64,000 nt of DNA from assembly GCA_963796275.1 (NCBI GenBank), contig CAWCKY010000001.1:608001-672000 (forward strand). Reading direction: 5' to 3'. Of this stretch, positions 7,684-64,000 are shown in pieces. Under the pieces are notes generated by a model, which saw only the letters and a list, made by a program, of their open reading frames with translations, searched no databases and was not told the origin of the DNA. Origin of the DNA: an uncultured Acidobacteriota bacterium (GTDB lineage Bacteria > Acidobacteriota > Blastocatellia > RBC074). The first letter of the stretch is position 1, and the number at the start of each line of letters is the position of its first letter. A program made the translations under genes and the position numbers.

Positions 7684-8064
7684 GTGAATGTCGCTGTGAA
7701 TAAAGACAGTAAAACTCCGGCGGAGATTACCCTTATCGTGATCGGGGGCCGGTGGAAAATCCCAATCCTCTATCACTTATTCCAGGGCGTGAAGCGCTTC
7801 TCCGAGTTGCAACATTCATTGGATGGGATCTCGCAAAAAGTCCTGACGCAGCAATTGCGCGAGATGGAGCGTCACGGTGTCGTCCATCGTAAGGTCTATC
7901 CTGAGGTGCCGCCCAAGGTCGAGTACTCACTGACCCCGCTCGGCGAGACGTTGAAGCCCGTTATCGAAGAGTTATGCAAATGGGGGACAAAGTTCGAAAT
8001 CGGCGAATTCGAAGCCGAAAAGATTGAATCGTACACAATGAACGTATCTCCGAAAGAAGATTAG
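7684..8064 (+). CDS. HxlR-family winged-helix transcriptional regulator
   Basis: IGGRWK, RFSEL, ISQKVLTQQLREME and PPKVEYSLT motifs. GTG at 7684 follows a GGAGGT RBS. Confidence 0.92.
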   Translation: MNVAVNKDSKTPAEITLIVIGGRWKIPILYHLFQGVKRFSELQHSLDGISQKVLTQQLREMERHGVVHRKVYPEVPPKVEYSLTPLGETLKPVIEELCKWGTKFEIGEFEAEKIESYTMNVSPKED

Positions 8065-8130
8065 CGCTGACACTTTGACTGCGATCGTTTAACTATGGGG
8101 GATTGCAGATCGGTCCCAATCCGCGATCAC

Positions 8131-9210
8131 TTACCATCGCTTGAAATTAAATCTGTCGAGTGTGATGCCGAGCCCGGTGGTAATCAGCAGGTCGTTATTC
8201 CTCGAGCCGAAGACCTGATTGCTGATGTAGCGATCGCTGACGATGATATCCCAGGTAAGCCACTTCGACATCTTTGTGATAACTGCCGAATCGAATGTGA
8301 TCCGATATTCTCCCGTATTACTCATATTCGGAAAGAGTTGAAAGCGCTGCTGTATTGAAACGCGATCTGAGAGTTTGAAAGTAAGCTCCTCTCCAACCAG
8401 CAACTCGCCGGAATTGCGAGTCACCCCGGTCGAGTATTTCTCCCGGTCGTACGCGCCGCCGCCGAAGACCTGAAATTGTGTCCGATCATTCTTGATGAAG
8501 TAATATCCGATGCCTCCGCCCGGTACGGCTCGTAAGTCCAGAAGCTGAATCTCATTGTAGTCGAAATCGGCGAAGCCGAAGGCCACCCATCTATCGGTGA
8601 GATTGTGTTCGTAGCGGCCACCCCCGTGGATTGTGTTGGCTGTCGTCTCGGTCACGCCGCCGCTGTTGTTCTTCGATTTGACGTAAGCCGCATAGAGGGT
8701 TGTCTTGTCCCGGTTCGTCTGGCGGCTCATAATTGTGTCAAATGATAATGTGGTGTCTCGGATAGTCCCCGTTGTCAGGCTGTAGCCAAGATTCATATCG
8801 GTATCCCATAAATCCAACCAGCTCGGGTGGAGATGCCGTTCGTATTCCTCCTGCTCGGGTTTTGATCGGATCGCCTGGACTTTGCCGGGCTCGAGCGAAA
8901 CCAATGCGGCGTCCCTGGTTTCAACCTCGTAGTTACCTCCTCTGGTCGCGACCCTTCCAGCTACCGTCTTTCCATCATCGAGCGCAAACCAGAGCGTTTG
9001 TTCAGATGTGATCTGCGTTACTACATCGGCCGATATATTGATCTCGCCGGCATAATCGGTCTTGATTGTCAGCGTTTTTCCATCTGATTTGACGATCATG
9101 CCCGAGATTCGATCGCCATTTTTCAACGTTACCTCGTCGGCTAGAATTCGCGCCCCCAATCCCGGCCAGAGCATACATATCGCCGCTAAAATTACTATTT
9201 TACAAGGCAT
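8131..9210 (-). CDS. DUF481/YdiY-like outer-membrane beta-barrel protein
   Basis: Signal peptide, DEVTLKNGDRISG N-terminal domain and alternating beta-strand pattern. ATG 9210 follows GGAGG. Confidence 0.75.
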   Translation of the reverse strand: MPCKIVILAAICMLWPGLGARILADEVTLKNGDRISGMIVKSDGKTLTIKTDYAGEINISADVVTQITSEQTLWFALDDGKTVAGRVATRGGNYEVETRDAALVSLEPGKVQAIRSKPEQEEYERHLHPSWLDLWDTDMNLGYSLTTGTIRDTTLSFDTIMSRQTNRDKTTLYAAYVKSKNNSGGVTETTANTIHGGGRYEHNLTDRWVAFGFADFDYNEIQLLDLRAVPGGGIGYYFIKNDRTQFQVFGGGAYDREKYSTGVTRNSGELLVGEELTFKLSDRVSIQQRFQLFPNMSNTGEYRITFDSAVITKMSKWLTWDIIVSDRYISNQVFGSRNNDLLITTGLGITLDRFNFKRW

Positions 9211-9371
9211 TGCCCCTCCCTTCATTAACAGAAAAACCGAGAATTATGGAAGGAAATTTTCAGTTCGGCCGGAGGATAGTGCGAGATATAGATATTAACC
9301 GTCAGATTCATATCTGTCTATCGGTCGGCATAAGCAGATTTTTCGGATTGCAAGCCCACTTTATCTAAAAA

Positions 9372-9413
9372 GACAAAAATGTTATCTTTCACGCTCCTGG
9401 AGACATTTTTGTC
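9372..9413. promoter_or_regulatory. Pair of ACA-W4-TGT palindromic boxes, 30 bp apart, upstream of the NifA-like activator
   Basis: GACAAAAATGTT (9372-9383) and GACATTTTTGTC (9402-9413). Confidence 0.6.
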
Positions 9414-9516
9414 CAAGACGTTAAGCGGCGAAAGATATCGATAGCAGTGATGTTCGGGTGCCAGTATTGGCAGACATAACCGATGCTGAATAAAAGCACG
9501 AGGAGACAAAGCGGGC

Positions 9517-9530
9517 GAACAATATTGTTC
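9517..9530. promoter_or_regulatory. Third ACA-W4-TGT box (perfect 14-bp palindrome), possible autoregulatory operator
   Basis: GAACAATATTGTTC, about 45 bp before the activator start codon. Confidence 0.55.
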
Positions 9531-9574
9531 TTTACTTTCTCTTCTTCTTTTTCCTGGTTCTAGCGGCAGAGGAG

Positions 9575-11107
9575 ATGATGATGGATGAATCGGCACAGAT
9601 AAGGAAGTTGACGGCGCTGCTCGACGTGAGCCAGGCGCTCGGTTCCACCTTAAATTTAAGCGAGGCTCTTGAAAACATTCTGGAAATTCTCGACCGAGAA
9701 CTCGGGATGAAGCGCGGCGCTATCGTAATGCTGGAAGCGAAAGGGGAGCTGAAGATCCAGTATGCTCATGGGATGAGCGAGGGTGAACGGCAACGCGGTC
9801 GCTATCGTCTCGACGAAGGCATAACGGGCAAGGTCGTATCATCAGGCAAACCTGTGGTTGTTCCACAGGTGAGCAGGGAGCCGCTGTTCCTCAACCGGAC
9901 GCGCAAACGCGATCCCAAACAGGAAGAATCCTTCATCTGTGTTCCGATCAAAAACCACCGCAAGACGATCGGCGCGCTTTCGATCATTTATCCGTTCAAA
10001 CAAAACAGGAGCTTCGATGATGCGGTTAAACTCCTCACGATCATAGCTTCGATGATTTCGCAGAGCCTCCGAATGGCGCAGATGGTTGAGCAGGAGAAAG
10101 CACAGCTGGTTGATGAGAATGCGCTGCTTAAGCGCGAACTGCAACAGAAATATGATTTCCGCAACATCATCGGTACGAGCAAAGAGATGCGCGAGATCTA
10201 TGATCAGATCGCGCAGGTCGCGCATACCAATACTACCGTGTTGATTCGGGGAGAGTCGGGCACGGGCAAAGAGCTGGTCGCGCACGCGATCCACTACAAC
10301 AGCCCGCGTTCAGCCAAACCTTTCGTTAAGGTTAATTGCGCGGCGCTCCCCGAATCATTGATAGAGTCGGAGCTCTTCGGTCACGAGAAAGGAGCTTTCA
10401 CCGGCGCCGTTGCGCGCAAAAGAGGGCGTTTCGAGCTGGCTGAAAGCGGAACGATGTTTCTGGACGAAATCGGTGATCTTTCGCCGGCATTACAAGTCAA
10501 ATTGCTGCGCGTTCTGCAGGAGCGCGAATTCGAGCGGGTCGGAGGTACCGAGACGATCCGCGTCAATGTCAGGATGATAACGGCGACGAATGTAGACCTG
10601 GAACAGGGGGTGCAGGATGGGCGTTTCCGCTCCGACCTGTATTACCGACTGAATGTCTTTTCGATATATTTACCGACATTGCGCGAGAGAAAGACCGACA
10701 TCTTATTGCTCGCCGATCATTTCCTCGAAAAATACGCTCGTCAAAACGGTAAACGTATCAAGCGTATTTCGACGCCCGCCATCGATATGCTGATGAGCTA
10801 TCACTGGCCAGGCAATGTGCGTGAACTCGAGAATGTCATAGAACGGGCGGCGCTCGTCTGCGAAGGAAACGTCATTCACGGGTATCATCTGCCCCCCACC
10901 CTCCAGACCGCTGAAGGCTCTGGAACAGTTACAAAGATGAGCCTGGATCAGGCGGTCAGCGCATTTGAAAAGGACCTGATTCAGGATGCTTTGAAAACAG
11001 CGCGCGGCAACCGTGCGCGCGCTGCCAGAATGCTCGATACGACCGAACGCATTCTCGGTTATAAGGTCAAGAAATACGAGATTGATTCCAGACGCTTCAA
11101 AGGATGA
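9575..11107 (+). CDS. NifA-like sigma54-dependent activator (GAF-AAA+-Fis HTH)
   Basis: N-terminal GAF domain, GESGTGKE Walker [33 protein letters not shown], and C-terminal [13 protein letters not shown]. Confidence 0.92.
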
Positions 11108-11222
11108 AGTCAGCTCATTCTGCGTACCAACTCTGAACATTCACTATGAGCTCGCATAAATGCTGAAGTATTAATCGGGACCGCCTTTGTTTCATAAATA
11201 AATTCCCGGCACTGATGAAAAG

Positions 11223-11266
11223 CGACAATAATGTTGGGAAAATCGAGCGAGGCTACATTTTTGATG
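11223..11266. promoter_or_regulatory. Putative upstream activator sequence: two ACA-W4-TG boxes 30 bp apart
   Basis: cGACAATAATGTTg (11224-11235) and cTACATTTTTGATg (11254-11265), about 95-135 bp upstream of the -24 element. Confidence 0.6.
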
Positions 11267-11357
11267 TGGGCTAAAAAATCGTTATCGCGCCTGGGCTTGT
11301 CTATTTTCCGCTGTTTTTGCTGACATTTAATGGACCAAACCGGGGAAACGCTCGGAC

Positions 11358-11373
11358 TGGCAAGCCAGTTGCT
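11358..11373 (+). promoter_or_regulatory. Sigma54 (-24/-12) promoter for the small ORF-glnA unit
   Basis: TGGCAA-GCCAG-TTGCT matches TGGCAC-N5-TTGCW with exact GG-N10-GC spacing. Confidence 0.85.
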
Positions 11374-11444
11374 ATAAAACATGTTTACGTATCGTTCAGG
11401 AAGAAGATTTTAGAGGGAGGGGGCACTACTATAAGTGTGAATAC

Positions 11445-11669
11445 ATGAGTGGAAATTACAGACAAAAAAACAACAGTTATGGACAGCTCATGGAATTTTT
11501 GTTGAGCGAACGCCATCGTTATGAATCCGAAGAGGAATTCAGAGCATACGCTCTTGGGGAGGTTCGACGTTTCATCAGCGAGTTGCGACGGCTTGATATA
11601 GAGCTGACGATGCGGCCGAATTTTCTTGAGAAATCACCATTGGATTTCAACGCACCTGATAAGCCATAA
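11445..11669 (+). CDS. Small uncharacterised protein (74 aa), paralog 1, upstream of glnA
   Basis: Ungapped 46-aa core shares 30 identities with ORF 18673-18933. Lies between the sigma54 promoter and glnA. Confidence 0.8.
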   Translation: MSGNYRQKNNSYGQLMEFLLSERHRYESEEEFRAYALGEVRRFISELRRLDIELTMRPNFLEKSPLDFNAPDKP

Positions 11670-11788
11670 AAGCTTACGGTGACGAAGAAGCCCTGCTGGA
11701 TTTCTTCAGGCTTTTCCGAAGAGTTTCTTTCCAATCCCAATAATTTAATTTTGGCCTGGGAGAGTCCCAGCGCCCAAGGAGGCAATGA

Positions 11789-13213
11789 ATGACCCCAAAA
11801 GATGTAATAAAGCTAGCCAAAGAGAAGGGCATACAAATTGTAGACCTACGATTTATTGATATGCCCGGGACATGGCAGCACTTCTCGATTTCGGTTGGAG
11901 AATTGTCTGAAAACCTCTTCTCGGAGGGGATTGGTTTTGACGGTTCATCAATTCGAGGATTCCAGGCGATCAATGAATCGGATATGCTGCTCTTTCCGGA
12001 TCCGACAACCGCCACCATCGATCCCTTCACCGAGCATCCGACGTTGGTACTGATCTGCGATGTGAAAGACCCGATTACCGGCGCGAATTACACGCGCGAT
12101 CCGCGATTTGTAGCCAAGAAAGCCGAGGAGTATGTCAAGAAGACAGGTCTGGCCGATACGGTATACATTGGGCCAGAGCTGGAATTCTTCATCCTCGATA
12201 ATGTCCGCTTCGACCAGAGTTACAACTACGGTTTTTATTATCTCGACTCAGAAGCAGCGGCCTGGAATTCGGGAAGAGAAGGAACGCCCGAGAGGCCGAA
12301 CCTGGGCAATCGTCCGCGCTATAAGCAGGGTTATTTCCCCGTGCCGCCCGATGACCATATGCAGGACATACGCTCTGCGATGCTGCTGGCGCTCGAAAGC
12401 GTCGGCGTGAGAATCGAAGTACACCACCACGAGGTGGCGACCGGCGGTCAGACCGAAATCGACATGCGGTTCGACACATTAACCCGGATGGCTGACAAGG
12501 TGCTCTGGTACAAGTACTGCACCAAGAACGTTGCGAAGAGATACGGTAAGACGGTGACATTCATGCCCAAACCGCTCTTCCAGGATAACGGTTCCGGCAT
12601 GCATACGCACCAGTCGCTGTGGAAGGGTGAGAAGAATATCTTTTACGAGAAGGGGGGGTATGCCGATCTCTCGCAAACCTGTCTTTACTACATCGGCGGC
12701 ATTCTCAAGCACGCGCCGGCTCTGTGCGCATTGATCGCGCCGACCACCAACTCCTATCGCCGTCTGGTGCCCGGCTACGAAGCACCGATCAACCTGGCCT
12801 ACAGCCAACGAAACCGATCGGCGGCTGTGCGCATTCCGACCTACTCGAAAGCCGAGAGAGCCAAACGCATCGAGTTTCGTACTCCGGACCCGACCTGCAA
12901 TCCGTATCTCTCCTTCGCCGCTTGCGTAATGGCGGGGCTGGATGGGATTGCCAACAAAATCGATCCGGGCGATCCGATGGACAAGGACCTCTATGAATTG
13001 CCGCCGGAAGAGGCCGCGGAGATCAAGCAGCTTCCGGGATCGCTCGATGAGGTGCTCAATGCATTGGAGACTGATCATGCCTTCCTGCTGAAGGGCGATG
13101 TCTTCACTAAAGATTTGATCGAGACCTGGATCGAGTACAAACGGAAGAACGAAGTGGATCCGATCCGTCTGCGTCCACATCCCTGGGAATTCGCGCTCTA
13201 TTTCAACGTCTGA
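11789..13213 (+). CDS. glnA: Glutamine synthetase type I
   Basis: [33 protein letters not shown] and RIEFR motifs. Adenylylation Tyr in [17 protein letters not shown]. Confidence 0.98.
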
Positions 13214-13217
13214 AGCT

Positions 13218-13294
13218 GCACAAACTGGAAGCAAGAACGGCAAAATGAAGTAGAAAAGTTTGCTTCCTTTTGCCCTTTTGCTTCCAGTTTTTGC
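13218..13294. terminator. Long imperfect inverted repeat between convergent glnA and GlnE-removase genes, probable bidirectional terminator
   Basis: AAACTGGAAGCAA (13222-13234) pairs with TTGCTTCCAGTTT (13278-13290). Confidence 0.6.
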
Positions 13295-13296
13295 GC

Positions 13297-14895
13297 TTAT
13301 TTCGTCTCTTTCGTTTCCTCCTCGCTTCTCCTCTTCAGGCGCGAAGATTCTGGCGCCCCGATGATAATTTCGAATATTCCATTCACATGGTTGGTATGAA
13401 GTTGATAGTCGCGTAGGAATTGCTCGCTTGCGCTCAATTGATCGTCATCGCAATAACCGAGCATACGGGAGAGAGCATTCAAGGGGCCCGCTTTTACCGG
13501 TATCGAATGCGTCTGCGCATCATCGACCATCTGCAGCTTATTCTCCACATCCCGCAGGAAAATGTAGGCCGCAGTCAGCCTGATCATCTCGTCAGCCGAG
13601 ATCAGCGCTTGAGCGCAGAGCGCATCGAGGGCTTTCAGCGTGCTGCGTCCGCAAATCTCCTGGTAGCTGCTCCCGAATGTTAGTTGAAGCGCCTGTACGA
13701 TGAGTTCGATCTCGCGGATTCCCCCGAATCCCAATTTGACGTTTCGGTCCCGCTCGCGGCTGGCAGTCATCTTTCTGTCGATCTTTTTCTTCATAGCGCG
13801 GACCTCGTTGAGGGGTTCGAGGCCGAAAGGGCGTTCATAAACAAAAGGAGCGACCATGGCCAGAAATTGCCGGCCGAGCCGGGCGTCGCCAGCCACCGGA
13901 TATGCCTTGAGCAAAGCTAATCTCTCCCACGTCTCACCCCGCGCATAATAATATCGCCGGAATCCATCGAGCGAATATGCGATGTTTCCCATTCGGCCAT
14001 CGGGCCGTAACCTCAAATCGACGCGATACAAATAGCCTTCGTTTGTGATGTCGCTTAAAGCCAGGGTGACTCTTTGCGAGAGCTGGCGATAGTACTCGGT
14101 GCTCGAGATGGGTGCGGTCTGATTCGAGTCATCATCGTCAGCTGCGTGTAGATAGATCAGGTCGACATCGGAGCTGAAGTTGAGCTCACCTCCGCCGAGT
14201 TTCCCCATTCCCAGGATGGTGAACCCCCCCAAACTTCTTCTGGAGATTCCGGATTCTCGAAACAGCGCGCCTTCACAAATCCGCAGGGCGGCCGAGATCA
14301 GCGCTTCAGCGAGTAGCGAGAGAGCAGACAGCGTTTCTTCAACCGGGCAAAGACGCATGAGATCGCGCACTCCGATGTGCAGCATTTCCCTACGTTTGAA
14401 AGCGCGCAGGAAATCCAATTGCTTCTTTTCTGACGCGATACTCTGCAGTCCGCGCAAGACATCGCGGGCGATCTCCCGCTTTTTACGTTTCTGGTAGAGC
14501 GTCTGAGGATCAGTCAGCCAGTAGAGATAGACCGGATCCCTGATGAGAATTTCGGCCATATGCTGGCTGCCTCCGAAAGTCTTGGCGAGAATTTCCAGGC
14601 TGCGCGGGGATTCATTAAGGTAGGAAAACAAGCGCGTTTTGTTGACGGCGGAGCGCGCGAATCTTTCGAAATGATTGAGCGCCTGGTCCGGGTCGGCCGA
14701 TTGCGACGCGCACAGGAGCAAATCTTCCAGGATATTGGCCAGTAGCTGGCGCGCCGTGGGATCATCCGCCATCGCCTGCAGATTGGCGTCAGCTTTAGTT
14801 GGCTCTTTAAATCCGTAAGGACCCAGCAAAGCTTCCGCCTGCTGCGGATCGAGGCGTGGCGCCAGCAGTAGATCCTTTAAGTTCTTGGGCGACAT
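13297..14895 (-). CDS. glnE: Stand-alone GlnE N-terminal half (adenylyl-removase-type nucleotidyltransferase)
   Basis: One NT domain: GMGKLGGGELNFSSDVDLI, YRVDLRLRPDG, WERLALLKA and NVKLGFGGIREIE. Start taken at MSPKN (ATG 14895). Confidence 0.85.
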   Translation of the reverse strand: MSPKNLKDLLLAPRLDPQQAEALLGPYGFKEPTKADANLQAMADDPTARQLLANILEDLLLCASQSADPDQALNHFERFARSAVNKTRLFSYLNESPRSLEILAKTFGGSQHMAEILIRDPVYLYWLTDPQTLYQKRKKREIARDVLRGLQSIASEKKQLDFLRAFKRREMLHIGVRDLMRLCPVEETLSALSLLAEALISAALRICEGALFRESGISRRSLGGFTILGMGKLGGGELNFSSDVDLIYLHAADDDDSNQTAPISSTEYYRQLSQRVTLALSDITNEGYLYRVDLRLRPDGRMGNIAYSLDGFRRYYYARGETWERLALLKAYPVAGDARLGRQFLAMVAPFVYERPFGLEPLNEVRAMKKKIDRKMTASRERDRNVKLGFGGIREIELIVQALQLTFGSSYQEICGRSTLKALDALCAQALISADEMIRLTAAYIFLRDVENKLQMVDDAQTHSIPVKAGPLNALSRMLGYCDDDQLSASEQFLRDYQLHTNHVNGIFEIIIGAPESSRLKRRSEEETKETK

Positions 14896-15062
14896 ACTGT
14901 CTGATAAGATAATGAAGTTTGGAAGACGAAACAAATAATAATTATATGGAGGAATGAATCACGACAAAAATCACAAATGTTGCCTGTAACCGCAAATATT
15001 ATCTTTGGCATCGGTTTTTTGTCCTGTTGTGAGACTTCTTCCTCGAATACTATAGAACACGA

Positions 15063-17312
15063 ATGGTGAACGCTGAAATCAAGAGAGTGATCGAAACATT
15101 CTGTCCGGAAATCGACAAAGATTTTGTCGGGGAATTCTTTGCTCGCATGGATGAAGATTATTTTGCCACTTTCTCTCCGGAAGAGATCGCCACCCATATA
15201 CGTATGTCGCGCGGGCTCGATCCGGAGCATCCGGTGCGATGCCTGATTACGCCGCGCGGTGACGGCGAATTCGATATCATCATCGTCGGTTTCGACTACC
15301 TTTCCGAGTTTTCCATCTTCTGCGGCTTAATGTCGGCGTTCGGTCTCGCGATTCAATCCGGCAATAGCTATTCGTTTGCCAGGAATACGTCCGATGCCAC
15401 AAGCGCGCGAACGGCCCACCGATCTCCTAGAAGGAAGCGGCCATCGTCGAGCCGGATCGTAGATGTCTTCACCGTCAGCCTGGACCAGGATGAGGTATTC
15501 GATGAATCCACACAATCCCGCTTCGCGGAGCAACTGCAAGCGCTCGTCCGGCAGCTCGCTACAGGATCGTCCGACCAGGTTAGGGATCGTCTCAATCGCC
15601 TTCTGACCGATCGTCTTGAGAAGATGGATGGGCAATTGAGCGGTCTGCTCTCTCCCATCGATGTCCAATTCGATAACCTGGCTTCGCCGGACTGGACCCT
15701 GATGAACGTGCGCTCCGAGGATGCCTACGCCTTCCTCTATGCTTTCTCGAATGCGCTCGCGATGCGCGGAATTTACATACACAAAGTCAGGATCGAAAGC
15801 GTCCGGAACGAAGTGAGAGATCAGTTTTTCATCGCCGACAGATGGGGACGCAAAATCGAAAGTGAACGAGAGCAGGAGCAACTGCGCACGGCGGTAGTGC
15901 TGATCGAGCAATTCACACGGTTCTTGCCGTCAGCGCCGGACCCGGCTCGGGCGATGCGCCACTTCGATCAGTTTCTGGATAAGATCGCGGAGGAGCAGAT
16001 TTCCGACGAGTCCGTAGCCTTTTTCACCGGCGATGAGGGAATGAACCTGCTGGCGCATCTGCTGGGCAGCAGCGATTTCCTCTGGGACGAGTTCCTGCGC
16101 TTCAAAGAAATACAACCGATCCTGCCGATTCTGAGAGACTTCTCTCGCATTGAACTGGATCCCGGTAAACAATCGCTGTTCTATCACCTCGACGCACAGC
16201 TTGCCCGTGCCGCCACTTTTGAGGAGAAGAAGAAGGGCGTCAACCAATTCAAGGACCGCCAGGTCTTCCTGATCGATATAAAGCACCTACTGGATCCGCA
16301 GACAACCCTGGTGGATTTCTCTCAAGCGCTGACCCACCTGGCCGAGGTGATTCTGCATAAAGCTGCTGAACTTTGCCTCTCGCAACTGGTCGAAGAGTAC
16401 GGAGAGCCCGTGTTGATAAACGGAACCAAGTGCAGGTTTACGATCTGCGGGCTGGGCAAGTTCGGCGGGTGCGAAATGGGATATGCATCCGATCTTGAGA
16501 CGTTGTTTGTTTACGAAGGACCGGGGCAGACGCGCGGAGATAAGGCGATAGATAATGGGATTTTCTTTGAGCTATTGGTGCAAAAGATCGCAGAGTTCAT
16601 CGAAGCCCGTGAGAAAGGGGTCTTTCACATCGATCTCAGGCTCAGACCGCACGGAAAAGCCGGCGCGCTGGCGAGCCCGTACGAACAGTTGGCGGCTTAT
16701 TACAGTTCAACAGGCGAAGCTGCCCCTTTTGAGAGGCAGTCGCTCATCAAGCTGCGGTGGGTCGCCGGAGATGAAGCTCTCGGACGTAGAGTGGAAGCCC
16801 ATCGGGACAGTTACAGCTATAGTGGGGAGACATGGGATTGGGAGTACGCCCTCCATCTGCGCGGCAGGCAAGAGCGTGAACTGGTCAGGGCCGGTGAGGT
16901 GAATGTGAAATATAGTCCCGGTGGAATCATCGATATAGAGTACACCGCTCAGTATCTGCAAATCATCTTTGGGAAAGATCAGGGCCTCAGGACGGCCAAC
17001 ACGATGGAGGCGTTGGACGAGCTCAACCGTTTGCAAATCATCGCTCGAAGCGATCACGGTGAATTACAGACCGCCTATATTTTCTTGCGCCGGCTAATCG
17101 ATGCGCTCAGGCTGGTGCGCGGCGATGCCAGCGACCTCGTGCTGCCGCACGAGTCTTCAGAGGAATATAAATCGCTCGCTCGAAGAATGGGCTACCAGGA
17201 GCGAGACCGAAGAAAGAGCGCCGAGCGATTGGCCGCGGATATCAGACAGTTAATGAAAAAAGTCCGGTCACATTATCTGAAATGCATACAAATTAAGGCG
17301 CAGCCGGGTTAG
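15063..17312 (+). CDS. glnE: GlnE C-terminal half (adenylyltransferase-type) fused to N-terminal GlnD-like tandem ACT domains
   Basis: GLGKFGGCEMGYASDLE, IDLRLRPHG, FERQSLIK and VKYSPGGIIDIEY. The N-terminus has EDYFATFSPEEIATH and VQFDNLASPDWTLMNVRSED...DQFFIADRWGRKI, resembling GlnD ACT repeats. Confidence 0.85.
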   Translation: MVNAEIKRVIETFCPEIDKDFVGEFFARMDEDYFATFSPEEIATHIRMSRGLDPEHPVRCLITPRGDGEFDIIIVGFDYLSEFSIFCGLMSAFGLAIQSGNSYSFARNTSDATSARTAHRSPRRKRPSSSRIVDVFTVSLDQDEVFDESTQSRFAEQLQALVRQLATGSSDQVRDRLNRLLTDRLEKMDGQLSGLLSPIDVQFDNLASPDWTLMNVRSEDAYAFLYAFSNALAMRGIYIHKVRIESVRNEVRDQFFIADRWGRKIESEREQEQLRTAVVLIEQFTRFLPSAPDPARAMRHFDQFLDKIAEEQISDESVAFFTGDEGMNLLAHLLGSSDFLWDEFLRFKEIQPILPILRDFSRIELDPGKQSLFYHLDAQLARAATFEEKKKGVNQFKDRQVFLIDIKHLLDPQTTLVDFSQALTHLAEVILHKAAELCLSQLVEEYGEPVLINGTKCRFTICGLGKFGGCEMGYASDLETLFVYEGPGQTRGDKAIDNGIFFELLVQKIAEFIEAREKGVFHIDLRLRPHGKAGALASPYEQLAAYYSSTGEAAPFERQSLIKLRWVAGDEALGRRVEAHRDSYSYSGETWDWEYALHLRGRQERELVRAGEVNVKYSPGGIIDIEYTAQYLQIIFGKDQGLRTANTMEALDELNRLQIIARSDHGELQTAYIFLRRLIDALRLVRGDASDLVLPHESSEEYKSLARRMGYQERDRRKSAERLAADIRQLMKKVRSHYLKCIQIKAQPG

Positions 17313-17359
17313 ATGTTCGGTCGCCGGAAATCAATCGAGAACAAATTTTTGTGCCCTTC

Positions 17360-18397
17360 CTACCATTCGCCAGCATCGACCACATCGACCTCCACGGCGT
17401 TCGAACTGTGACCCTCGCAATAGACCTGCACTGTGTTGGAGCCGATATCGAGCCCGGGTGGGACAGCGATATTGATCTGTGCCGAGCCGGCCTGATCGAT
17501 CTCACTGACAAAACAGGGGCGCACACCATAACCTCCGATCACAACCTTCACGTTTGTGCGAGTCGCCGTTTCTGGCATTCTCTTCGCCCAGATCGCGAAA
17601 ATCGCATTTCTGCCGCGGCGCGGGAAGTAATGCTTGAAAGTACATGCATTATTCACATCATCGATAAAGATCGAGGGCGCGGGTTGAGCCGGTAGGTCGG
17701 TGAATTGGCGGTGAGCCTTTAAGGTCGATCGCGTCTTTTCGCGGTGTATCACATCTATCTGCGCGAACCCGGCGGTATCGGCCATATTTACGAGGCACTG
17801 CGTATTTGGCCCCCACCAATTATCGTATTGCCCGCCCAATTCATCGAACGGATAGAACTCCATGACCGGCGACGTTGCATCGAGCATACCATCGATAACG
17901 TATGATTGAATTATCGCTACATCGCGCGTAACTTCACAGACGCGCTGCAGACCCAGCAATGGATGTTGCAGATGGTAGAGCACGCCCAGGAAAATGACGA
18001 TATCGAAAACGCCGAGATTCTCGCGGCTGACTTCATAGACGCTCAGCTCGCGAAATTCAACGCGCGATTTGAGCTCGCTATGCGCCTCGAAGAATTTGGC
18101 GGGGCGGACGCAGTCGACTGCCACCACCTCGGCACCGTGCCGTTCAGCCGTGAACGAATAAAAACCATCCCAACAGCCAATGTCGAGCACACGCTTCCCG
18201 GTAAGGTCATCCGGTAATTTGAAATTGTCATAATGAGATTGAAGTTCATCGAGTTTGCGCGCGCCCGGAGTGATTCGGCCGCCTCCGAGATCGATGCTGT
18301 GCCACCAACCGGTTTTCGCCAGTTCTTCGGTATTTTCTCCCGCTACTTTTTCATGTGCTTCCCGCATCGCGAGATCGTCTTTTAATTGTGTCGCCAT
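17360..18397 (-). CDS. Class I SAM methyltransferase (CmoB/DUF1698-like) with C-terminal IPT/TIGR03437-like tail
   Basis: WWHSIDL, VLDIGCWDG, FLGVLYHL and NWWGPN motifs. Tail is QINIAVPPGL...SSNAVEVDV. Confidence 0.75.
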   Translation of the reverse strand: MATQLKDDLAMREAHEKVAGENTEELAKTGWWHSIDLGGGRITPGARKLDELQSHYDNFKLPDDLTGKRVLDIGCWDGFYSFTAERHGAEVVAVDCVRPAKFFEAHSELKSRVEFRELSVYEVSRENLGVFDIVIFLGVLYHLQHPLLGLQRVCEVTRDVAIIQSYVIDGMLDATSPVMEFYPFDELGGQYDNWWGPNTQCLVNMADTAGFAQIDVIHREKTRSTLKAHRQFTDLPAQPAPSIFIDDVNNACTFKHYFPRRGRNAIFAIWAKRMPETATRTNVKVVIGGYGVRPCFVSEIDQAGSAQINIAVPPGLDIGSNTVQVYCEGHSSNAVEVDVVDAGEW

Positions 18398-18514
18398 AAT
18401 GTTTCTCGTGTGGATGATGTCTGATAAAGAAAGCTAATTTACCTCAACGGTTAAGTCGAATCAATTCCGCAGCGGTGCCGAGTTATTGTAAAAGGCTGGC
18501 GTTTAGATGGCAGA

Positions 18515-18526
18515 TACATTATTGTT
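18515..18526. promoter_or_regulatory. ACA-W4-TGT box upstream of small ORF paralog 2 and ilvD
   Basis: TACATTATTGTT, with half-sites at 18483-18490 and 18543-18550. Confidence 0.45.
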
Positions 18527-18593
18527 GCCGGAGAGAACGGAGTACATAAAAAACTGAAAAGAAGTGATATCAAGACTAGACCGTGCAGGGCAA

Positions 18594-18608
18594 GGGCACT
18601 AACGTCGC
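18594..18608 (+). promoter_or_regulatory. Possible degenerate sigma54 promoter for small ORF 2-ilvD
   Basis: GGGCAC-TAACG-TCGC keeps GG-N10-GC spacing. An alternative, TGGCGT-TTAGA-TGGCA, lies at 18497-18512. Confidence 0.4.
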
Positions 18609-18672
18609 GGAGAGTGATGTCTGCAACTCATTCGACGCTCTCTTAAACCCATGAACATTATTTTAGGAGGAC

Positions 18673-18933
18673 TTGATGCACGACTACGAAAATGAAAAGA
18701 GTGAAACTACTGAACCTAAGGACCAAAGCGAGTTGATGAGCTTATTGCTGAAAGAGCGTTCGAAATTTTCGTCTGAGGAGGAATTTAAGGCGTACGCGGT
18801 AGATGAAGTGCGGCGCTTCATCAATGATCTGCGTTCGATCAATATCGAGCTTACGATGCGGCCAACCTTCAATAAGATTCCGCTCTCGCGGCATAGCGTC
18901 ACCGAAAAATTGAGCTCACATCGAGAAAACTGA
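18673..18933 (+). CDS. Small uncharacterised protein (85-86 aa), paralog 2, upstream of ilvD
   Basis: AGGAGG RBS at 18665-18670. Core SEEEF.AYA..EVRRFI..LR...IELTMRP.F is shared with 11445-11669. Stop lies 9 nt before the ilvD ORF. Confidence 0.85.
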   Translation: MMHDYENEKSETTEPKDQSELMSLLLKERSKFSSEEEFKAYAVDEVRRFINDLRSINIELTMRPTFNKIPLSRHSVTEKLSSHREN

Positions 18934-18942
18934 CTTAAAAAT

Positions 18943-20715
18943 ATGGCTTTTGATCCAGAAGATAATAATAACAACATCACTAACGGATCGGAGCGGGCGC
19001 CGGCGCGTTCTTATATAAAAGAAAAAAGTGATTTAAACATGTCATTCGATCCCAAACATCGCAGTCACATAATCACGAATGGCCGTGATCGGGCGCCGGC
19101 GCGCTCGATGTTCAAGGCCATAGGGTTTACCGATGAAGACCTGGCCAAACCGATTATCGGTGTCGCCCATATGTGGATTGAGACGATGCCCTGCAACTTC
19201 AATCACCGCGATCTGGCAGTAAAGGTCAAGGAGGGCATCCGCGCAGCCGGCGCCACGCCGATGGAGTTCAACACGATTTCGATCAGTGACGCGGTGACGA
19301 TGGGCACTGAAGGTATGAAGGCTTCGCTGGTCAGTCGTGACCTGATAGCCGATTCGATCGAACTTGTCGGGCGCGGTTATATGTTCGATGCCGTGATAGC
19401 GATTGTCGGCTGCGACAAGACGATTCCGGGCGCGGCGATGGGGCTGATCCGTTTGAACGTGCCGGGGCTGATCTTATATTGCGGTTCGATAGCTCCGGGA
19501 AATTTTCGCGGTCGCGACATAACAATTCAGGATGTCTTCGAGGCAGTCGGCGCTAATGCGGCGGGCAAGATCACAGACGCGGATCTTTTTGAGATCGAGA
19601 ACGTCGCTTGTCCCGGAACGGGCGCCTGCGGCGGTCAGTATACTGCCAACACAATGGCGATGGTGATGGAGTTCATCGGCTTGTCTGTCATGGGAACGGG
19701 CAGCGTTTCGGCGACCGACCCGCTCAAAGAGAAGACCGCGATTGAGTCGGGCAAGTTCATTGTCGACCTTCTGCGTCGAGGCGTCAGGCCTAGCGATATA
19801 CTGACTCGCATATCATTCGAGAACGCGATAGCCGGAGTCGCAGCCACCGGCGGTTCGACAAATGCTGTGTTGCATCTGCTCGCTATGGCGCGCGAAGCGG
19901 GGATCGATCTGACGATCGACGATTTCGACGCGATCAGCAAGCGTACGCCGCTCATAGCCGACCTGAAGCCGGGCGGAAAGTACACGGCGATCGATCTGGG
20001 GAAAGCGGGCGGCATCGGGCTCGTAGCGCGGCGCCTGGTCGAAGCCGGTTGTATCGATGGGAATCAGGTCACCGTGAGCGGGCTGACCATCGCACAGGAG
20101 ACCGAACTGGCAGACGAAACGCCCGGCCAGACCGTCGTTTTCTCTGTCGATAAACCTCTCAAACCCAACGGCGGGCTGGTAATCTTGAAAGGCAATCTCG
20201 CGCCGGAAGGCGCCGTCGTCAAAGTTGCCGGCCACGAACGCCCGTATCATCGCGGTCCTGCGCGCATCTTCGAGCGCGAAGAGGATGCGATGGAGGCGGT
20301 GACGGGCAAGCAGATCAAATCCGGAGATGTCGTCGTCATAAGATACGAAGGTCCGAGAGGCGGCCCGGGTATGCGTGAGATGCTCGGTGTAACGGCGGCG
20401 ATAGTGGGCGAGGGGCTGGGCGAAGAAGTAGCTTTGATGACCGACGGGCGTTTCAGCGGCGCCACCCGCGGGTTGATGGTCGGCCACGTAGCCCCTGAAG
20501 CGGCAACCGGCGGGCCAATCGCCGCGCTACGCGAGGGCGATATGATCGTATTCGATATCGAAGCCCGCAAGCTCGAAGTCGAACTCTCTGATGAGGAGAT
20601 CAAGCGAAGGTTGTTAGAATGGAAACCGCCCGCGCCGCGTTATAGGTCAGGAGTTTTTCAAAAGTACGCCGCGCTTGTTTCATCGGCCTCGGAAGGGGCG
20701 ATCACGAGAGGATGA
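18943..20715 (+). CDS. ilvD: Dihydroxy-acid dehydratase, with a duplicated 32-aa N-terminal extension (conventional start 19039)
   Basis: PCNF, GCDKT, ACGGQYTANTM, GGSTNAVLHL, EGPRGGPGMREM and TDGRFSG motifs. Confidence 0.97.
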   Translation: MAFDPEDNNNNITNGSERAPARSYIKEKSDLNMSFDPKHRSHIITNGRDRAPARSMFKAIGFTDEDLAKPIIGVAHMWIETMPCNFNHRDLAVKVKEGIRAAGATPMEFNTISISDAVTMGTEGMKASLVSRDLIADSIELVGRGYMFDAVIAIVGCDKTIPGAAMGLIRLNVPGLILYCGSIAPGNFRGRDITIQDVFEAVGANAAGKITDADLFEIENVACPGTGACGGQYTANTMAMVMEFIGLSVMGTGSVSATDPLKEKTAIESGKFIVDLLRRGVRPSDILTRISFENAIAGVAATGGSTNAVLHLLAMAREAGIDLTIDDFDAISKRTPLIADLKPGGKYTAIDLGKAGGIGLVARRLVEAGCIDGNQVTVSGLTIAQETELADETPGQTVVFSVDKPLKPNGGLVILKGNLAPEGAVVKVAGHERPYHRGPARIFEREEDAMEAVTGKQIKSGDVVVIRYEGPRGGPGMREMLGVTAAIVGEGLGEEVALMTDGRFSGATRGLMVGHVAPEAATGGPIAALREGDMIVFDIEARKLEVELSDEEIKRRLLEWKPPAPRYRSGVFQKYAALVSSASEGAITRG

Positions 20716-20838
20716 GGGAGTGCGGGTGCGCGCTCTCTCCCACTTATCAAACTCGGCTTCCATCGGTTCAGCGAGCCTGTCAGGGTCAATCCGGATAACG
20801 GGAGGACGCGCGCTATATTTATGGGCGCGTTCGGTGAT

Positions 20839-21945
20839 TTACTCCTGGTTTAATGCATCGACCGGATCCTGGCTGGCCGCCCGCAATGCGGGATAGATCG
20901 CTCCAACCAACCCGCTCATCAACCCGCCCGCTATCGCAAAAAAAATATAACCGGCTTCGAGCACAATTTGTGTTCCGATTGTTTTGAGAAGGATGGTCCG
21001 GGCGATCAGGGAGACCGTTAATCCACTGGCTACGCCGATCGTGCTTATCATCAGGGATTCTTTGATGAAGACTCCGGCGATGAATTTTTTAGATGCGCCC
21101 AGCGATTTGAGTATTCCGATTTGCCGTGTTCGTTCCATAACCGAGGAGTACATCGTCAGCGAGATGACGAGTAGACTGATGATAATGGCGAGTCCCGCCA
21201 CGACGTCGAGAAATATATTGAAGCTCTGATAACCGTTGGCGAAGAGCTTCGGCAGATCGCGGGTAAAGATTATGCGGAGATCCGGAAAACGCTCGATGAT
21301 CCGGCGTGCAACCGCTTCCTGCTCATTTTCGTTCCTGCATTTCACCATGAACATAGAGCATTTACCTTCGGCGCCCAGTTCCTCCTGCATCGTCGACAAG
21401 GGTATCATCGTTCGCGCTCCGGTCTCCGGTTCGTAGATACCCGCGACCTTGAACTGCCGGTTGAATATGCTGATGCAGTCTCCCGGGGTCGTATGGTGGA
21501 GGGCAGCGTACTTTATATCGACGATCACGGCATCTCCAGACTCAGGTAGAGCGCGGCCTTCCACGACGCGGATCTTCGTCGCATTGGTATAATCCGCAAA
21601 ATTCACACCGTCGATTTGACGTAAACCGAGTCCGTTATCGCCTTTCATCTCGAGATGTTGCCCGACGGGCGTGATCGCCGCGATGCCGGGCACTTCTCCT
21701 ATCCGGTCCATCAATTCGATCGGCAGCGATAACGGCAGCGAAGCCGCCGAAATGCCGAACTGCTGATGATGATAGACGAGTAATTCGACTCCGGTATTGG
21801 TATCCCGCTCTCCTCTGTTACGCAGCATACCGCGCACCAGCCCGACAGTGAGGATGACGAGGATGATTCCGACTGCGACACCGATAATGCTTGCTGCCGT
21901 TCGTCCCGGGTGATGCGTGAGATTGGCAGTAATCAAGGATTTCAT
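20839..21945 (-). CDS. ABC transporter permease, MacB/FtsX family
   Basis: TM-periplasmic-3TM layout, ERTRQIGILKSLGA, and YPALRAASQDPVDAL. Start overlaps the upstream GT stop. Confidence 0.88.
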   Translation of the reverse strand: MKSLITANLTHHPGRTAASIIGVAVGIILVILTVGLVRGMLRNRGERDTNTGVELLVYHHQQFGISAASLPLSLPIELMDRIGEVPGIAAITPVGQHLEMKGDNGLGLRQIDGVNFADYTNATKIRVVEGRALPESGDAVIVDIKYAALHHTTPGDCISIFNRQFKVAGIYEPETGARTMIPLSTMQEELGAEGKCSMFMVKCRNENEQEAVARRIIERFPDLRIIFTRDLPKLFANGYQSFNIFLDVVAGLAIIISLLVISLTMYSSVMERTRQIGILKSLGASKKFIAGVFIKESLMISTIGVASGLTVSLIARTILLKTIGTQIVLEAGYIFFAIAGGLMSGLVGAIYPALRAASQDPVDALNQE

Positions 21946-23235
21946 AATTTTTCGTGTGCCATCTTTTTCGAAGACTTGTTCGATTGGTGAAGGTTGATCT
22001 TGCGCGCAATACGCGTCGCGGGAAATTCTGCGTGAAGTTCGTCGTAGAGATCAAAGAATTGTGCGGTTACCGCCTCCCAAGTATATCGCCGTGAAGTCCA
22101 GAACGCACGAGCCAACCTGTCTTTGCGGACGGCGGGATCAGCGAAGACTGAATGCACGGCGGCGACATAGGCCTCTCCGTTGGCTTCTGCCAACCAGCTA
22201 TTATTTTCGTCAGCGTAAGAGAGCACGCCGCCCGATCTGGGCGCGACGAGCGGCAATCCGGCGGCCATCGCTTCGAGAGGTGCGATCCCGAATGGCTCGC
22301 GCGGATTGGGATGAACGAAAGCATCGCAGTTAGCATATAGATCTACCAATGCGGCGCGATTACGTATATGGCCGAGAGAATAGACGCGTCCCGGCGCGCG
22401 GAGCCGCGCCTCATCGGCGAACCAATCGGCGAGCGGGCCGTCGCCCGCAATAATCAGCCGGTAATCACCCGTGCGTTCACGCGCGAGCTTCTCCATCATT
22501 TCAAGAAGGAGAGCGATATTTTTCTCTTGCGATAAACGACCGGCATAGAGCAGAAGCTTGGTTCGCCGGTCGCCCTGAAACAACGAAATGAGCTTTTGTC
22601 TGCTCGTTTCGGACCTGCGGCCTGAGACGTAGTCGGCCACATCTGCGCCCATCGGACGAACATGGACGTCCCTTTTCATGGCGGGCGACCATCGCTTCGC
22701 GCAATTCATCCGCGGTGTATTGTGAGTTGGCTATGTGATAATCGAAGAGCGGAATGTATAAATTGCCGAGATATAGCCTGGAAAGGCGTTTGCCCAATCT
22801 GTTGTCTGTGAGAAATGCGCTGACATTATCGTCCATCCGTTCGCAGCTCATCCCGACGAGCACCGGTCGGCGCAAGCCGGAGATCCAACGCTCGCGCAGA
22901 AACCCGGCGAGCCAGCACAGAGCATACTTATCGCAAACTTCAACCAGATCAGGTGTTTCATCGCGCAGGATACTGTTAAGTTCTCCGTTAAAGGCATAAG
23001 TATGAGGCAACAGAAGACGGTACCGACGGTCGAAGATGGGTGCCCGCGGCGCTTTGATATGATAGATAGCTCCGTGCTCGCCGATTTTTTCCATCCTTGT
23101 CCGATCGCCCGGCACGACCAGCCGCATCGAGCGACCATGACGATTGGCCGCATTGAGCAACGCACGATAGAACGTGCTGATGCCACCCGAGGTGGTGTGG
23201 TAGGCGTTGGTAATGTGAAGCGTTTTTATGGACAT
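21942..23235 (-). pseudogene. GT4-family glycosyltransferase interrupted by a 1-nt frameshift (possibly a sequencing error)
   Basis: The N-half (22501-23235; YHTTSGGI) and C-half (21942-22709; YAGRLSQEKN, EPFGIAPLEAMAAG) join if one base is removed from GAAAAGGG at about 22670-22676. Confidence 0.75.
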
Positions 23236-63479: not shown

Positions 63480-63664
63480 AATGCGATACGCAACAAACAC
63501 GCGAAAACAGGGATAGAAGCAAACATTTTTGTCATCTTCACCGCTCGGGCGGAGCGAATCCTGAGACGTCGCAGAGGATATTTTACCTGCGTCTCCATAA
63601 GCATTCTCTACGTCCAGACGGTGGTAACCGCAACTATAAAATTGCAGCTAAACTCAAATATAAG

Positions 63665-64000
63665 ATGAGAACGAACAAGCTGATTGCCATCTCACTGATC
63701 TTCGCCCTGCTGATATCATTAACGTCGATATTTCCCGCAGTGCCATCTGTGCTCTCCGCATCGCGCCCGCCTGTCCGCGGAAAGCATGGGATGGTTGCGT
63801 CAGTCAGCGAAATCGCCTCGCAGATAGGAGTTGACATTTTGAAACGCGGCGGCAATGCGGTGGATGCCGCAGTTGCCGTCGGGCTGGCGCTCGCGGTCGT
63901 GTGGCCTTCGGCGGGCAACCTGGGGGGCGGCGGGTTTATGGTAATCCGACTGGCTGATGGCAAAACGACGGCAATCGATTACCGCGAGATGGCGCCTGCC
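63665..64000 (+). CDS. ggt: Gamma-glutamyltransferase (5' part, runs off the window; missing from the ORF track)
   Basis: My translation gives MRTNKLIAISL...HGMVAS..ASQIGVDILKRGGNAVDAAVAVG.ALAVVWPSAGNLGGGGF..IDYREMAP. Confidence 0.93.
   Translation, partial: MRTNKLIAISLIFALLISLTSIFPAVPSVLSASRPPVRGKHGMVASVSEIASQIGVDILKRGGNAVDAAVAVGLALAVVWPSAGNLGGGGFMVIRLADGKTTAIDYREMAPA

Follow-up and report, generated by a model that had tools for sequence, protein, structure and literature searches.

What does a NifA-family activator control in a genome that encodes no nitrogenase? The question is raised by a 64,000-nucleotide stretch of DNA, hereafter the window, that covers positions 608001-672000 of contig C1 in the 9.46-Mb, 7-contig genome (G000) of an uncultured Acidobacteriota bacterium of the Blastocatellia. 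Within 11 kb of the window, a gene for a sigma-54 activator of the NifA family is followed by a small open reading frame (small ORF A), the glutamine synthetase (GS) gene glnA, two separate glnE genes, a second small ORF (small ORF B) and ilvD, all at the places where an earlier note, made from the letters of the DNA, had located them. From the sequence comparisons described below, we consider it likely that a sigma-54-dependent regulon for nitrogen assimilation in Blastocatellia (Acidobacteriota) has its core in this region. In the proposed mechanism, the activator, with its GAF sensor, AAA+ motor and helix-turn-helix (HTH) domain, would take the place that NtrC holds in Proteobacteria; it would bind paired GACA-W4-TGTC palindromes 30 bp apart, located ~130 and ~100 bp ahead of a sigma-54 promoter, and from these sites would activate small ORF A together with glnA in the window, glnN, which encodes a type III GS, together with a small ORF in most relatives, and glnD-amtB-glnK on contig C3 of the same genome.

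The activator gene (9575-11107, plus strand) encodes a 510-aa protein with GAF, Sigma54_activat, AAA_lid and HTH_8 domains and a GAFTGA motif. It is the sole protein of the genome above the curated cut-off of the NCBIfam nifA model (TIGR01817; 562.7 versus 528.85 bits); on the NtrC model (TIGR01818) it reaches 357.7 bits against a cut-off of 558.6, and a GAF domain stands where a receiver domain would be expected. The earlier description of the window as free of nif genes, PII and ntrBC is confirmed, with profile scans returning no PII, nifH, glnD, ntrBC or second sigma-54 activator in the window. With NifA of diazotrophs the protein shares the GAF-AAA+-HTH domain order and the score above the curated nifA cut-off. 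Unlike diazotroph NifA, it belongs to a genome without nifH (best match 23.6 bits versus a cut-off of 394), its predicted targets are assimilation genes, and the intergenic DNA of the island holds no match to TGT-N10-ACA, the consensus of the canonical NifA upstream activator sequence, which occurs four times in the window versus 6.1 expected. The genome does contain rpoN. A "NifA-like protein" reportedly exists in the non-diazotroph Aquifex aeolicus as well, going by the title of a study by Studholme et al. from 2000. Elsewhere in the window genome, a second NifA-like paralogue (C3:1004830-1006197) is 60% identical to the activator over residues 54-509, falls short of the nifA cut-off with 470 bits, and has a sigma-54-like promoter upstream.

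Two types of DNA element connect the activator with GS. A sigma-54 promoter of the -24/-12 type, TGGCAAGCCAGTTGCT (11358-11373, plus strand; core TGGCAAGCCAGTTGC, 11358-11372), lies ~70 bp before small ORF A, and the DNA upstream of it (11224-11265) holds the box GACAATAATGTT at -134 from the promoter TGGC and the weaker box TACATTTTTGAT at -104, with one and three mismatches to GACA-W4-TGTC, respectively. The activator gene is itself preceded by the tandem boxes GACAAAAATGTT and GACATTTTTGTC, 30 bp apart (9372-9413), and by a third, weaker box (9518-9529). The promoter, which the earlier note had already proposed, is borne out by relatives: the pattern TGGCAAGC.A.TTGC recurs downstream of the orthologous activator gene in 13 of the 16 loci scanned, each of these 13 has a GACA-W4-TGTC box with at most two mismatches 130-149 bp upstream of TGGC, and in nine of them a second box follows exactly 30 bp downstream of the distal one. 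The survey of synteny suggested at the same time found the unit of activator, promoter, GS and small ORF syntenic in Blastocatellia relatives, which supports the idea of a nitrogen-control island from which that note had started.

Could the arrangement be chance synteny of housekeeping genes, and the boxes AT-rich noise? The boxes are indeed short and AT-rich, and genome-wide, where exact 30-bp spacing is found in 5 of 10 box pairs (summed mismatches up to 3, spacing 19-42 bp), three of the five (C1:1292278, C3:460075 and C6:1379405) are weak matches inside coding DNA that we dropped as chance. We nevertheless regard this explanation as barely credible. The core ACAWWWWTGT occurs seven times in the window versus 0.46 expected, a count that none of 100 shuffles reached, and five of the seven cores (9373, 9403, 9519, 11225 and 18516) lie in intergenic DNA of the island, the remaining ones being located inside an ORF (34086) and upstream of a gamma-glutamyltranspeptidase gene (63523). 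Position and spacing relative to the promoter are conserved in 13 loci, boxes are enriched next to activator orthologues across the phylum (see below), and among the 107 cores of the 9.46-Mb genome there are only two clusters of at least two, one before the activator gene and the other before glnD; the pairs at these two places have the 30-bp spacing in common.

Two caveats apply to the boxes as shared operators. The DNA ahead of small ORF B is conserved in one relative (L035), but the box palindrome in it is not kept in relatives, and the spacer between the two glnE genes has weak boxes (2 and 3 mismatches) that are not conserved. TGGCGTTTAGATGGCA, before small ORF B, was considered as a sigma-54 promoter and rejected, its -12 part not being kept in L035. 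Scans for sigma-70 promoters and terminators gave matches at chance level, and an Rfam scan of 8000-22000 returned sub-threshold microRNA and snoRNA look-alikes only, with no glutamine riboswitch. Near the far end of the window, a single box, AACATTTTTGTC (63522-63533), lies in the intergenic DNA between a formiminotransferase-cyclodeaminase gene and the gamma-glutamyltranspeptidase gene (63665-64000), with no sigma-54 promoter seen between box and gene. In three glnN-type relatives, L026 (3734-3860), L028 (3699-3830) and L063 (9931-10030), the activator gene has a sigma-54-like promoter of its own, TGGCCAGC.AGTTGC, with two boxes downstream of it, which suggests that the activator is autoregulated in these relatives.

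The second box cluster of the genome (cores at C3:1107417 and C3:1107447) belongs to another nitrogen island on contig C3 (1100461-1114400), which contains, in order, a gltB-like gene, a gene for a TPR protein on the minus strand, four box-like sites, a sigma-54-like promoter, glnD, amtB, glnK and a gene for a BBP2 porin. The cluster lies upstream of the promoter, TGGCATGAGGTTTGCTT at C3:1107918, which precedes glnD-amtB-glnK-porin, and two more box-like sites precede the promoter by 115-140 bp. There is one full copy of glnD in the genome (679.5 bits, above the cut-off) and a single PII gene, placed in a row after glnD and amtB, whose product has the T-loop YRGSEY, presumably the uridylylation site. 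All proteins of the genome fall short of the NtrC cut-off; of the best pair, a receiver-type activator and its kinase, the former scores 460.5 versus 558.6 bits and the latter 81.9 bits versus 240 for NtrB. The genome thus has no recognisable NtrBC, and has kept GlnD and PII, apparently inside the same regulon as the island in the window.

These findings bear directly on the circuit that the earlier note had envisaged, one complete in itself that replaces NtrBC, GlnD and PII, in which sensing is left entirely to the GAF and ACT domains and a small protein ties GS to ilvD and hence to branched-chain amino-acid synthesis. Such a circuit would account for a window without PII, glnD and ntrBC, for the lack of any genome protein above the NtrC cut-off, for the fusion of ACT domains to a GlnE module and for the abutment of small ORF B on the ilvD ORF. 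We now judge it very unlikely. Of the genes whose presence elsewhere in the genome had been left to a check, glnD and PII proved to be there, together with amtB, behind the same boxes and a sigma-54-like promoter, although NtrBC did stay below the cut-offs; the box before small ORF B is unconserved; and the link to ilvD appears to be secondary. The ilvD gene proper, for dihydroxy-acid dehydratase (19039-20715, plus strand; PRK00911, 805.9 bits versus a cut-off of 644), has the start MSFDPKH... that it shares with orthologues. The 590-aa "ilvD" ORF that abuts small ORF B begins 96 nt (32 codons) earlier with a degenerate in-frame duplicate of the ilvD 5' end (18943-19038, plus strand), the first copy of a ~96-nt tandem duplication at 18943-19134. 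Because this duplicated end lies at the junction, the adjacency of ilvD and the small ORF is, to judge from the scar, a by-product of local rearrangement. In the three relatives with ilvD near a small ORF (L035, L047 and L049), two FtsX-type permease genes stand between the two in every case. A coupling of GS to branched-chain amino-acid synthesis thus finds no support here.

Beyond the window genome, the activator has orthologues (E<=1e-140) in 35 genomes of a phylum sample of 201 that includes the window genome itself, with 49-85% identity, rising to 83-88% among Blastocatellia loci. In 13 of 29 foreign loci, each viewed with a 1.5-kb flank and including one flagged as unpublished (L073 of G049), a nitrogen-assimilation gene (AmtB, PII, GlnA, GSIII, GlnE or GltB) adjoins the activator gene, and in 14 of the 29 a box with at most one mismatch lies beside it, versus ~3.5 expected if such sites, of which the 9.46-Mb genome has 276, occurred at their genome-wide rate. 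These counts support a general role of this NifA-family protein in nitrogen assimilation of Acidobacteriota. Our literature searches found no paper describing an acidobacterial NifA-family activator and none on the regulation of nitrogen assimilation in Acidobacteriota; PMC12316311, as covered by a term search, contains 0 mentions of Acidobacteriota. Four contigs labelled "uncultured Heliomicrobium sp." (L027, L041, L042 and L047) have the order DUF481, NifA-like gene, glnN and small ORF that is seen in Blastocatellia metagenome-assembled genomes, with activators 83-84% identical to that of the window; the organism label may not reflect kinship.

The two small ORFs encode members of one protein family. 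Small ORF A (11445-11669, plus strand) has 74 aa, 15 codons of which are missing from the stored annotation, which starts at the second ATG (11490) and gives 59 aa; the N-terminal extension is conserved in homologues. Small ORF B (18673-18933, plus strand) has 86 aa from a TTG at 18673, or 85 aa from the ATG at 18676, after AGGAGG. The two are paralogues, as had been proposed, with 61% identity over 54 aa (E 9e-22). Mismatches among 18 different core sequences are distributed over the codon positions as 0.28/0.17/0.49, which marks the family as coding. The AlphaFold model is a two-helix hairpin with flexible ends, in which residues 21-60 have a predicted local distance difference test score (pLDDT) above 90. 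The proteins have no Pfam or NCBIfam match, no PDB sequence match better than E 0.14 in a profile search of PDB chains, no Foldseek match with E<=0.001 and no Atlas match. The family is rare: a word search gave 21 clusters, 50 representatives with E<=1e-3 (28 with E<=1e-10), nearly all of 54-106 aa, were found among 1.84 billion, and 4 genomes of a phylum sample of 401, the window genome counted in, possess it. One subgroup (rows P0052-P0073 of the 40-row alignment A2, two subsets of which served for the locus searches) has a conserved DWN.LK[IV]GCE tail. A Bdellovibrionaceae contig (L059) in which 13 residues only were matched was not counted as a relative.

Gene contexts were compared in 23 locus rows and in the more distant loci L052-L058, L061 and L062. 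The order NifA-like gene, glnN and small ORF is found in 15 loci, and the window order, with NifA-like gene, small ORF, glnA, glnE on the minus strand, ACT-glnE and small ORF, recurs in L046 and partly in L035. In the distant loci, NifA-like gene, glnA, small ORF and gltB follow each other in L052 and L061, and glnA and small ORF in L053; L062 has gltB on the minus strand, NifA-like gene, sigma-54 promoter, amtB and small ORF; L054, L055 and L057 have a sigma-54 promoter, small ORF and gltB; and L058 has small ORF and gltB, with no promoter found by the pattern used. By these arrangements, the constant of the family is membership of a predicted sigma-54 operon for ammonium assimilation, not any one enzyme. 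Taken together, the alignments, model and contexts indicate that the small proteins, of 60-85 aa, form a genuine and conserved family of helical hairpins whose genes are placed with those for GS, glutamate synthase (GOGAT) or AmtB. The C-terminal HS.T.KL tail of small ORF B is that of the copies behind glnN in relatives, and small ORF A has another tail; because of this, it looks as if, in the lineage of the window, a module of small ORF, glnA, glnE and glnE had taken the place of glnN, downstream of the conserved promoter and upstream of the old small gene.

What might such proteins do? In the proposed mechanism, they would be made together with GS, GOGAT or AmtB and bind a protein of the assimilation or signalling machinery, and we lean slightly towards this reading, in which they act by protein binding. 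Proteins of comparable size and setting have been described: cyanobacterial IF7/IF17, PirA, PirC and PipX and Methanosarcina sP26 are shorter than 100 aa, belong to nitrogen regulons and act by protein binding, according to the respective reports (PMC6316151, PMC8092223, PMC7760959 and bioRxiv 10.1101/2020.05.06.080432). The window proteins resemble them in having fewer than 100 aa and a place in a nitrogen regulon, and differ from them in their phylum and in their predicted co-transcription with GS, GOGAT or AmtB; no sequence relation to the described small regulators appeared, as judged by the Pfam, NCBIfam, PDB and Atlas searches rather than by pairwise comparison.

Two more specific versions of protein binding have to be weighed. 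By analogy to cyanobacterial IF7/IF17 or Methanosarcina sP26, the small proteins might be dedicated modulators that bind GS directly. Most loci would fit, with the small ORF adjoining a GS gene of type III or I in the 15 glnN loci, the window, L046, L032/L061, L052 and L053. We nonetheless find this unlikely: in L062 the small ORF comes after amtB and in L054-L058 it stands ahead of gltB, with no GS gene within 8 kb, the two GS types are only ~25% identical, and the profile search of PDB chains gave no sequence relative. Alternatively, the small proteins could modulate the regulators, either as a feedback partner of the activator, as PspA is of PspF, or as a PII adaptor in the manner of PipX, PirA and PirC. 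This would agree with their production from operons predicted to be activator-driven, whatever enzyme these encode, with the position of the small ORF beside the activator gene in most loci, and with contexts next to glnA and amtB that are typical of PII genes. Against it stands the distribution of the two partners, with the activator in 35 of 201 genomes and the small family in 4 of 401, so that the activator would work without a small protein in most of the phylum; by analogy to the known systems we keep a role in modulating regulators as a tentative option, if a better one than binding to GS.

Several observations weigh against a regulon of the kind proposed here. Some concern the DNA elements: the proximal box before small ORF A has its three mismatches, the strict promoter pattern is unmatched in 3 of the 16 loci, and no sigma-54 promoter was found in the window before the activator gene, the glnE genes or small ORF B; moreover, with three of the five 30-bp pairs in coding sequence, the spacing signal rests on two loci in the genome. 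Others concern the composition of the regulon, in that the small ORF of L054-L058 has no NifA-like gene within 8 kb and that of L037 and L040 has no nitrogen-assimilation neighbours at all. A search of sequencing runs gave no RNA run with the stretch, and the best DNA run had a 0.23 share of the words. Finally, ~45 open frames of the genome, a very large complement, match the AAA+ core of sigma-54 activators, and one of these others could act as NtrC.

With these points taken into account, we still hold it likely, and rather more so than not by a good measure, that, when nitrogen is limiting, the activator on the paired boxes drives the sigma-54-dependent transcription of both GS and glnD-amtB-glnK, with the binding and the signal as predicted parts of this reading. 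The predicted regulon is like the proteobacterial NtrBC/sigma-54 system in its sigma-54 promoter, in activator sites ~100-130 bp upstream, in GS and glnK-amtB as targets and in having PII and GlnD in the genome; it is unlike that system in an activator with GAF instead of a receiver domain, in the lack of a partner kinase and in the box GACA-W4-TGTC. Nitrogen status would reach the activator through its GAF domain, either as 2-oxoglutarate or via the single PII. The GAF domain of known NifA proteins senses 2-oxoglutarate or PII, and by analogy we give even chances to the GAF domain of the activator reading one or the other, or both.

The second unusual part of the island is the control of GS itself. 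The glnA gene (11789-13213, plus strand) encodes a type I GS (TIGR00653, 674 bits) with a DLYELPPEE loop (Tyr402), which, by E. coli Tyr397, we take to be the adenylylation site. In this lineage, two one-module genes on opposite strands stand in for the usual two-module GlnE, one of removase type and one fused to ACT domains. The former, separated from glnA by a spacer, encodes a 545-aa single-module GlnE of N-half (adenylyl-removing) type (13297-14934, minus strand; GlnE and GlnD_UR_UTase domains, motif GKLGGGELNFSSDVDL). It falls within the clade formed by N-halves from five fused GlnE proteins (support 97/95) and, on the solved E. coli halves, scores 199.7 bits with 1v4a versus 177.1 with 3k7d. 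The latter, a 749-aa ACT-GlnE (15063-17312, plus strand), consists of N-terminal helices, two ACT-like modules and one GlnE nucleotidyltransferase module (GlnE and GlnD_UR_UTase). Its N-terminus resembles the C-terminal ACT region of GlnD (TIGR01693 positions 615-844), and its AlphaFold model (pLDDT 81.5) has beta-beta-alpha-beta-beta-alpha modules at ~58-166 and ~200-286, ahead of the transferase fold. Both proteins keep the motif G-x-G-K-[LF]-G-G ... S-D-[VL]-[DE], and both stay below the 487-bit cut-off of the model for bifunctional GlnE (PRK11072). Where glnA and glnE converge, their 83-nt spacer (13217-13296) forms a hairpin, which draws sub-threshold microRNA-model matches (31.5 bits versus a gathering score of 59) and is probably a two-way terminator.

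Of the separate removase and ACT-transferase genes seen in the earlier note, the removase is supported by its clade, but the transferase label is not shown by similarity. The ACT-GlnE module forms a separate long branch (1.79) in the tree. Two of three NCBIfam models assign it to the C-half; in 5 of 5 BLAST comparisons it is nearer to the N-halves than to the C-halves of the five fused GlnE proteins, and the two solved E. coli halves match it almost equally well (111.4 versus 106.1 bits). We call ACT-GlnE the putative transferase by elimination, because the Tyr402 loop of GS calls for one and the other module is already of removase type. A stand-alone transferase is plausible by analogy, because GlnE without its N-terminal domain binds ATP and glutamine cooperatively (bioRxiv 10.64898/2026.09.02.748916); the portion of this preprint available to us makes no mention of ACT domains or split GlnE. 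The ACT pair might then serve as a glutamine sensor on the transferase, an idea that we put forward with some reserve.

With bifunctional GlnE and GlnD the split pair shares nucleotidyltransferase and GlnD_UR_UTase modules, the tyrosine loop of its GS and an ACT pair resembling the GlnD C-terminus. Unlike bifunctional GlnE, it is encoded by two genes on opposite strands, and a fusion of ACT to GlnE is absent from the literature searched, a search for GlnE with "ACT domain" having found no paper. The GlnE model is matched in 55 of the 201 phylum genomes (counting G049 and G152), where two strong modules otherwise lie in one frame of 858-1706 aa; the exceptions are the window genome, the only one of the sample with the split form, G193, with its modules on two short contigs, and G090 and G162, which are cut by contig ends. 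The divergent split pair is found again in L046 and L035. ACT-GlnE residues 1-330, used as a query, gave 991 protein clusters, possibly including other ACT-bearing proteins; nearly all of the best 120 of these are of 700-795 aa with a GlnE domain and, where named, come from Blastocatellia/Chloracidobacterium metagenome records. In a genome of the same family as that of the window (G016), the locus is of the glnN form, and GlnD gives the only GlnE match. In one family of the same class (L094, L096, G077, G113, G125 and G191), the gene immediately upstream of a fused full-length glnE is NifA-like; the link between activator and GlnE therefore predates the split form.

Two other genes complete the locus. 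Divergent from the activator gene lies a gene for a predicted outer-membrane protein (8131-9225, minus strand; Pfam DUF481, E 3e-31), which has a counterpart in 12 of the 23 locus rows and may be a member of the regulon. A gene for an S-adenosylmethionine-dependent methyltransferase (17360-18397, minus strand) lies inside the island and is absent at this place in relatives; in L035 and L046, no gene stands between the ACT-GlnE gene and the counterpart of small ORF B.

Collectively, the comparisons of genes, boxes and promoters indicate that the region is a real, coherent core of a nitrogen regulon, with the small-protein family and ACT-GlnE as uncharacterised components. Acidobacteriota are among the most abundant soil bacteria, and the island provides a testable regulon for them, comprising an activator, a DNA box, a promoter and target operons. 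It also exposes a pitfall, in that annotation pipelines would label the activator "nif-specific NifA" in a nitrogenase-free genome. Either of the two uncharacterised parts, the small-protein family linked to GS, GOGAT and AmtB or the ACT-fused GlnE, could reveal new control of GS. In the most far-reaching version, which we offer as a speculative one, the small hairpins would be a new class of nitrogen-signalling adaptors, confined to Acidobacteriota of Blastocatellia type, that bind one shared component (PII, the activator or GS), and ACT-GlnE would be a glutamine-gated, PII-independent modifier of GS. If true, a master regulator of NifA type would induce the small hairpins along with GS, GOGAT or AmtB, the hairpins would tune ammonium assimilation, and Blastocatellia would represent an independent invention of a mode of control by small proteins that has until now been known in cyanobacteria and methanogens.

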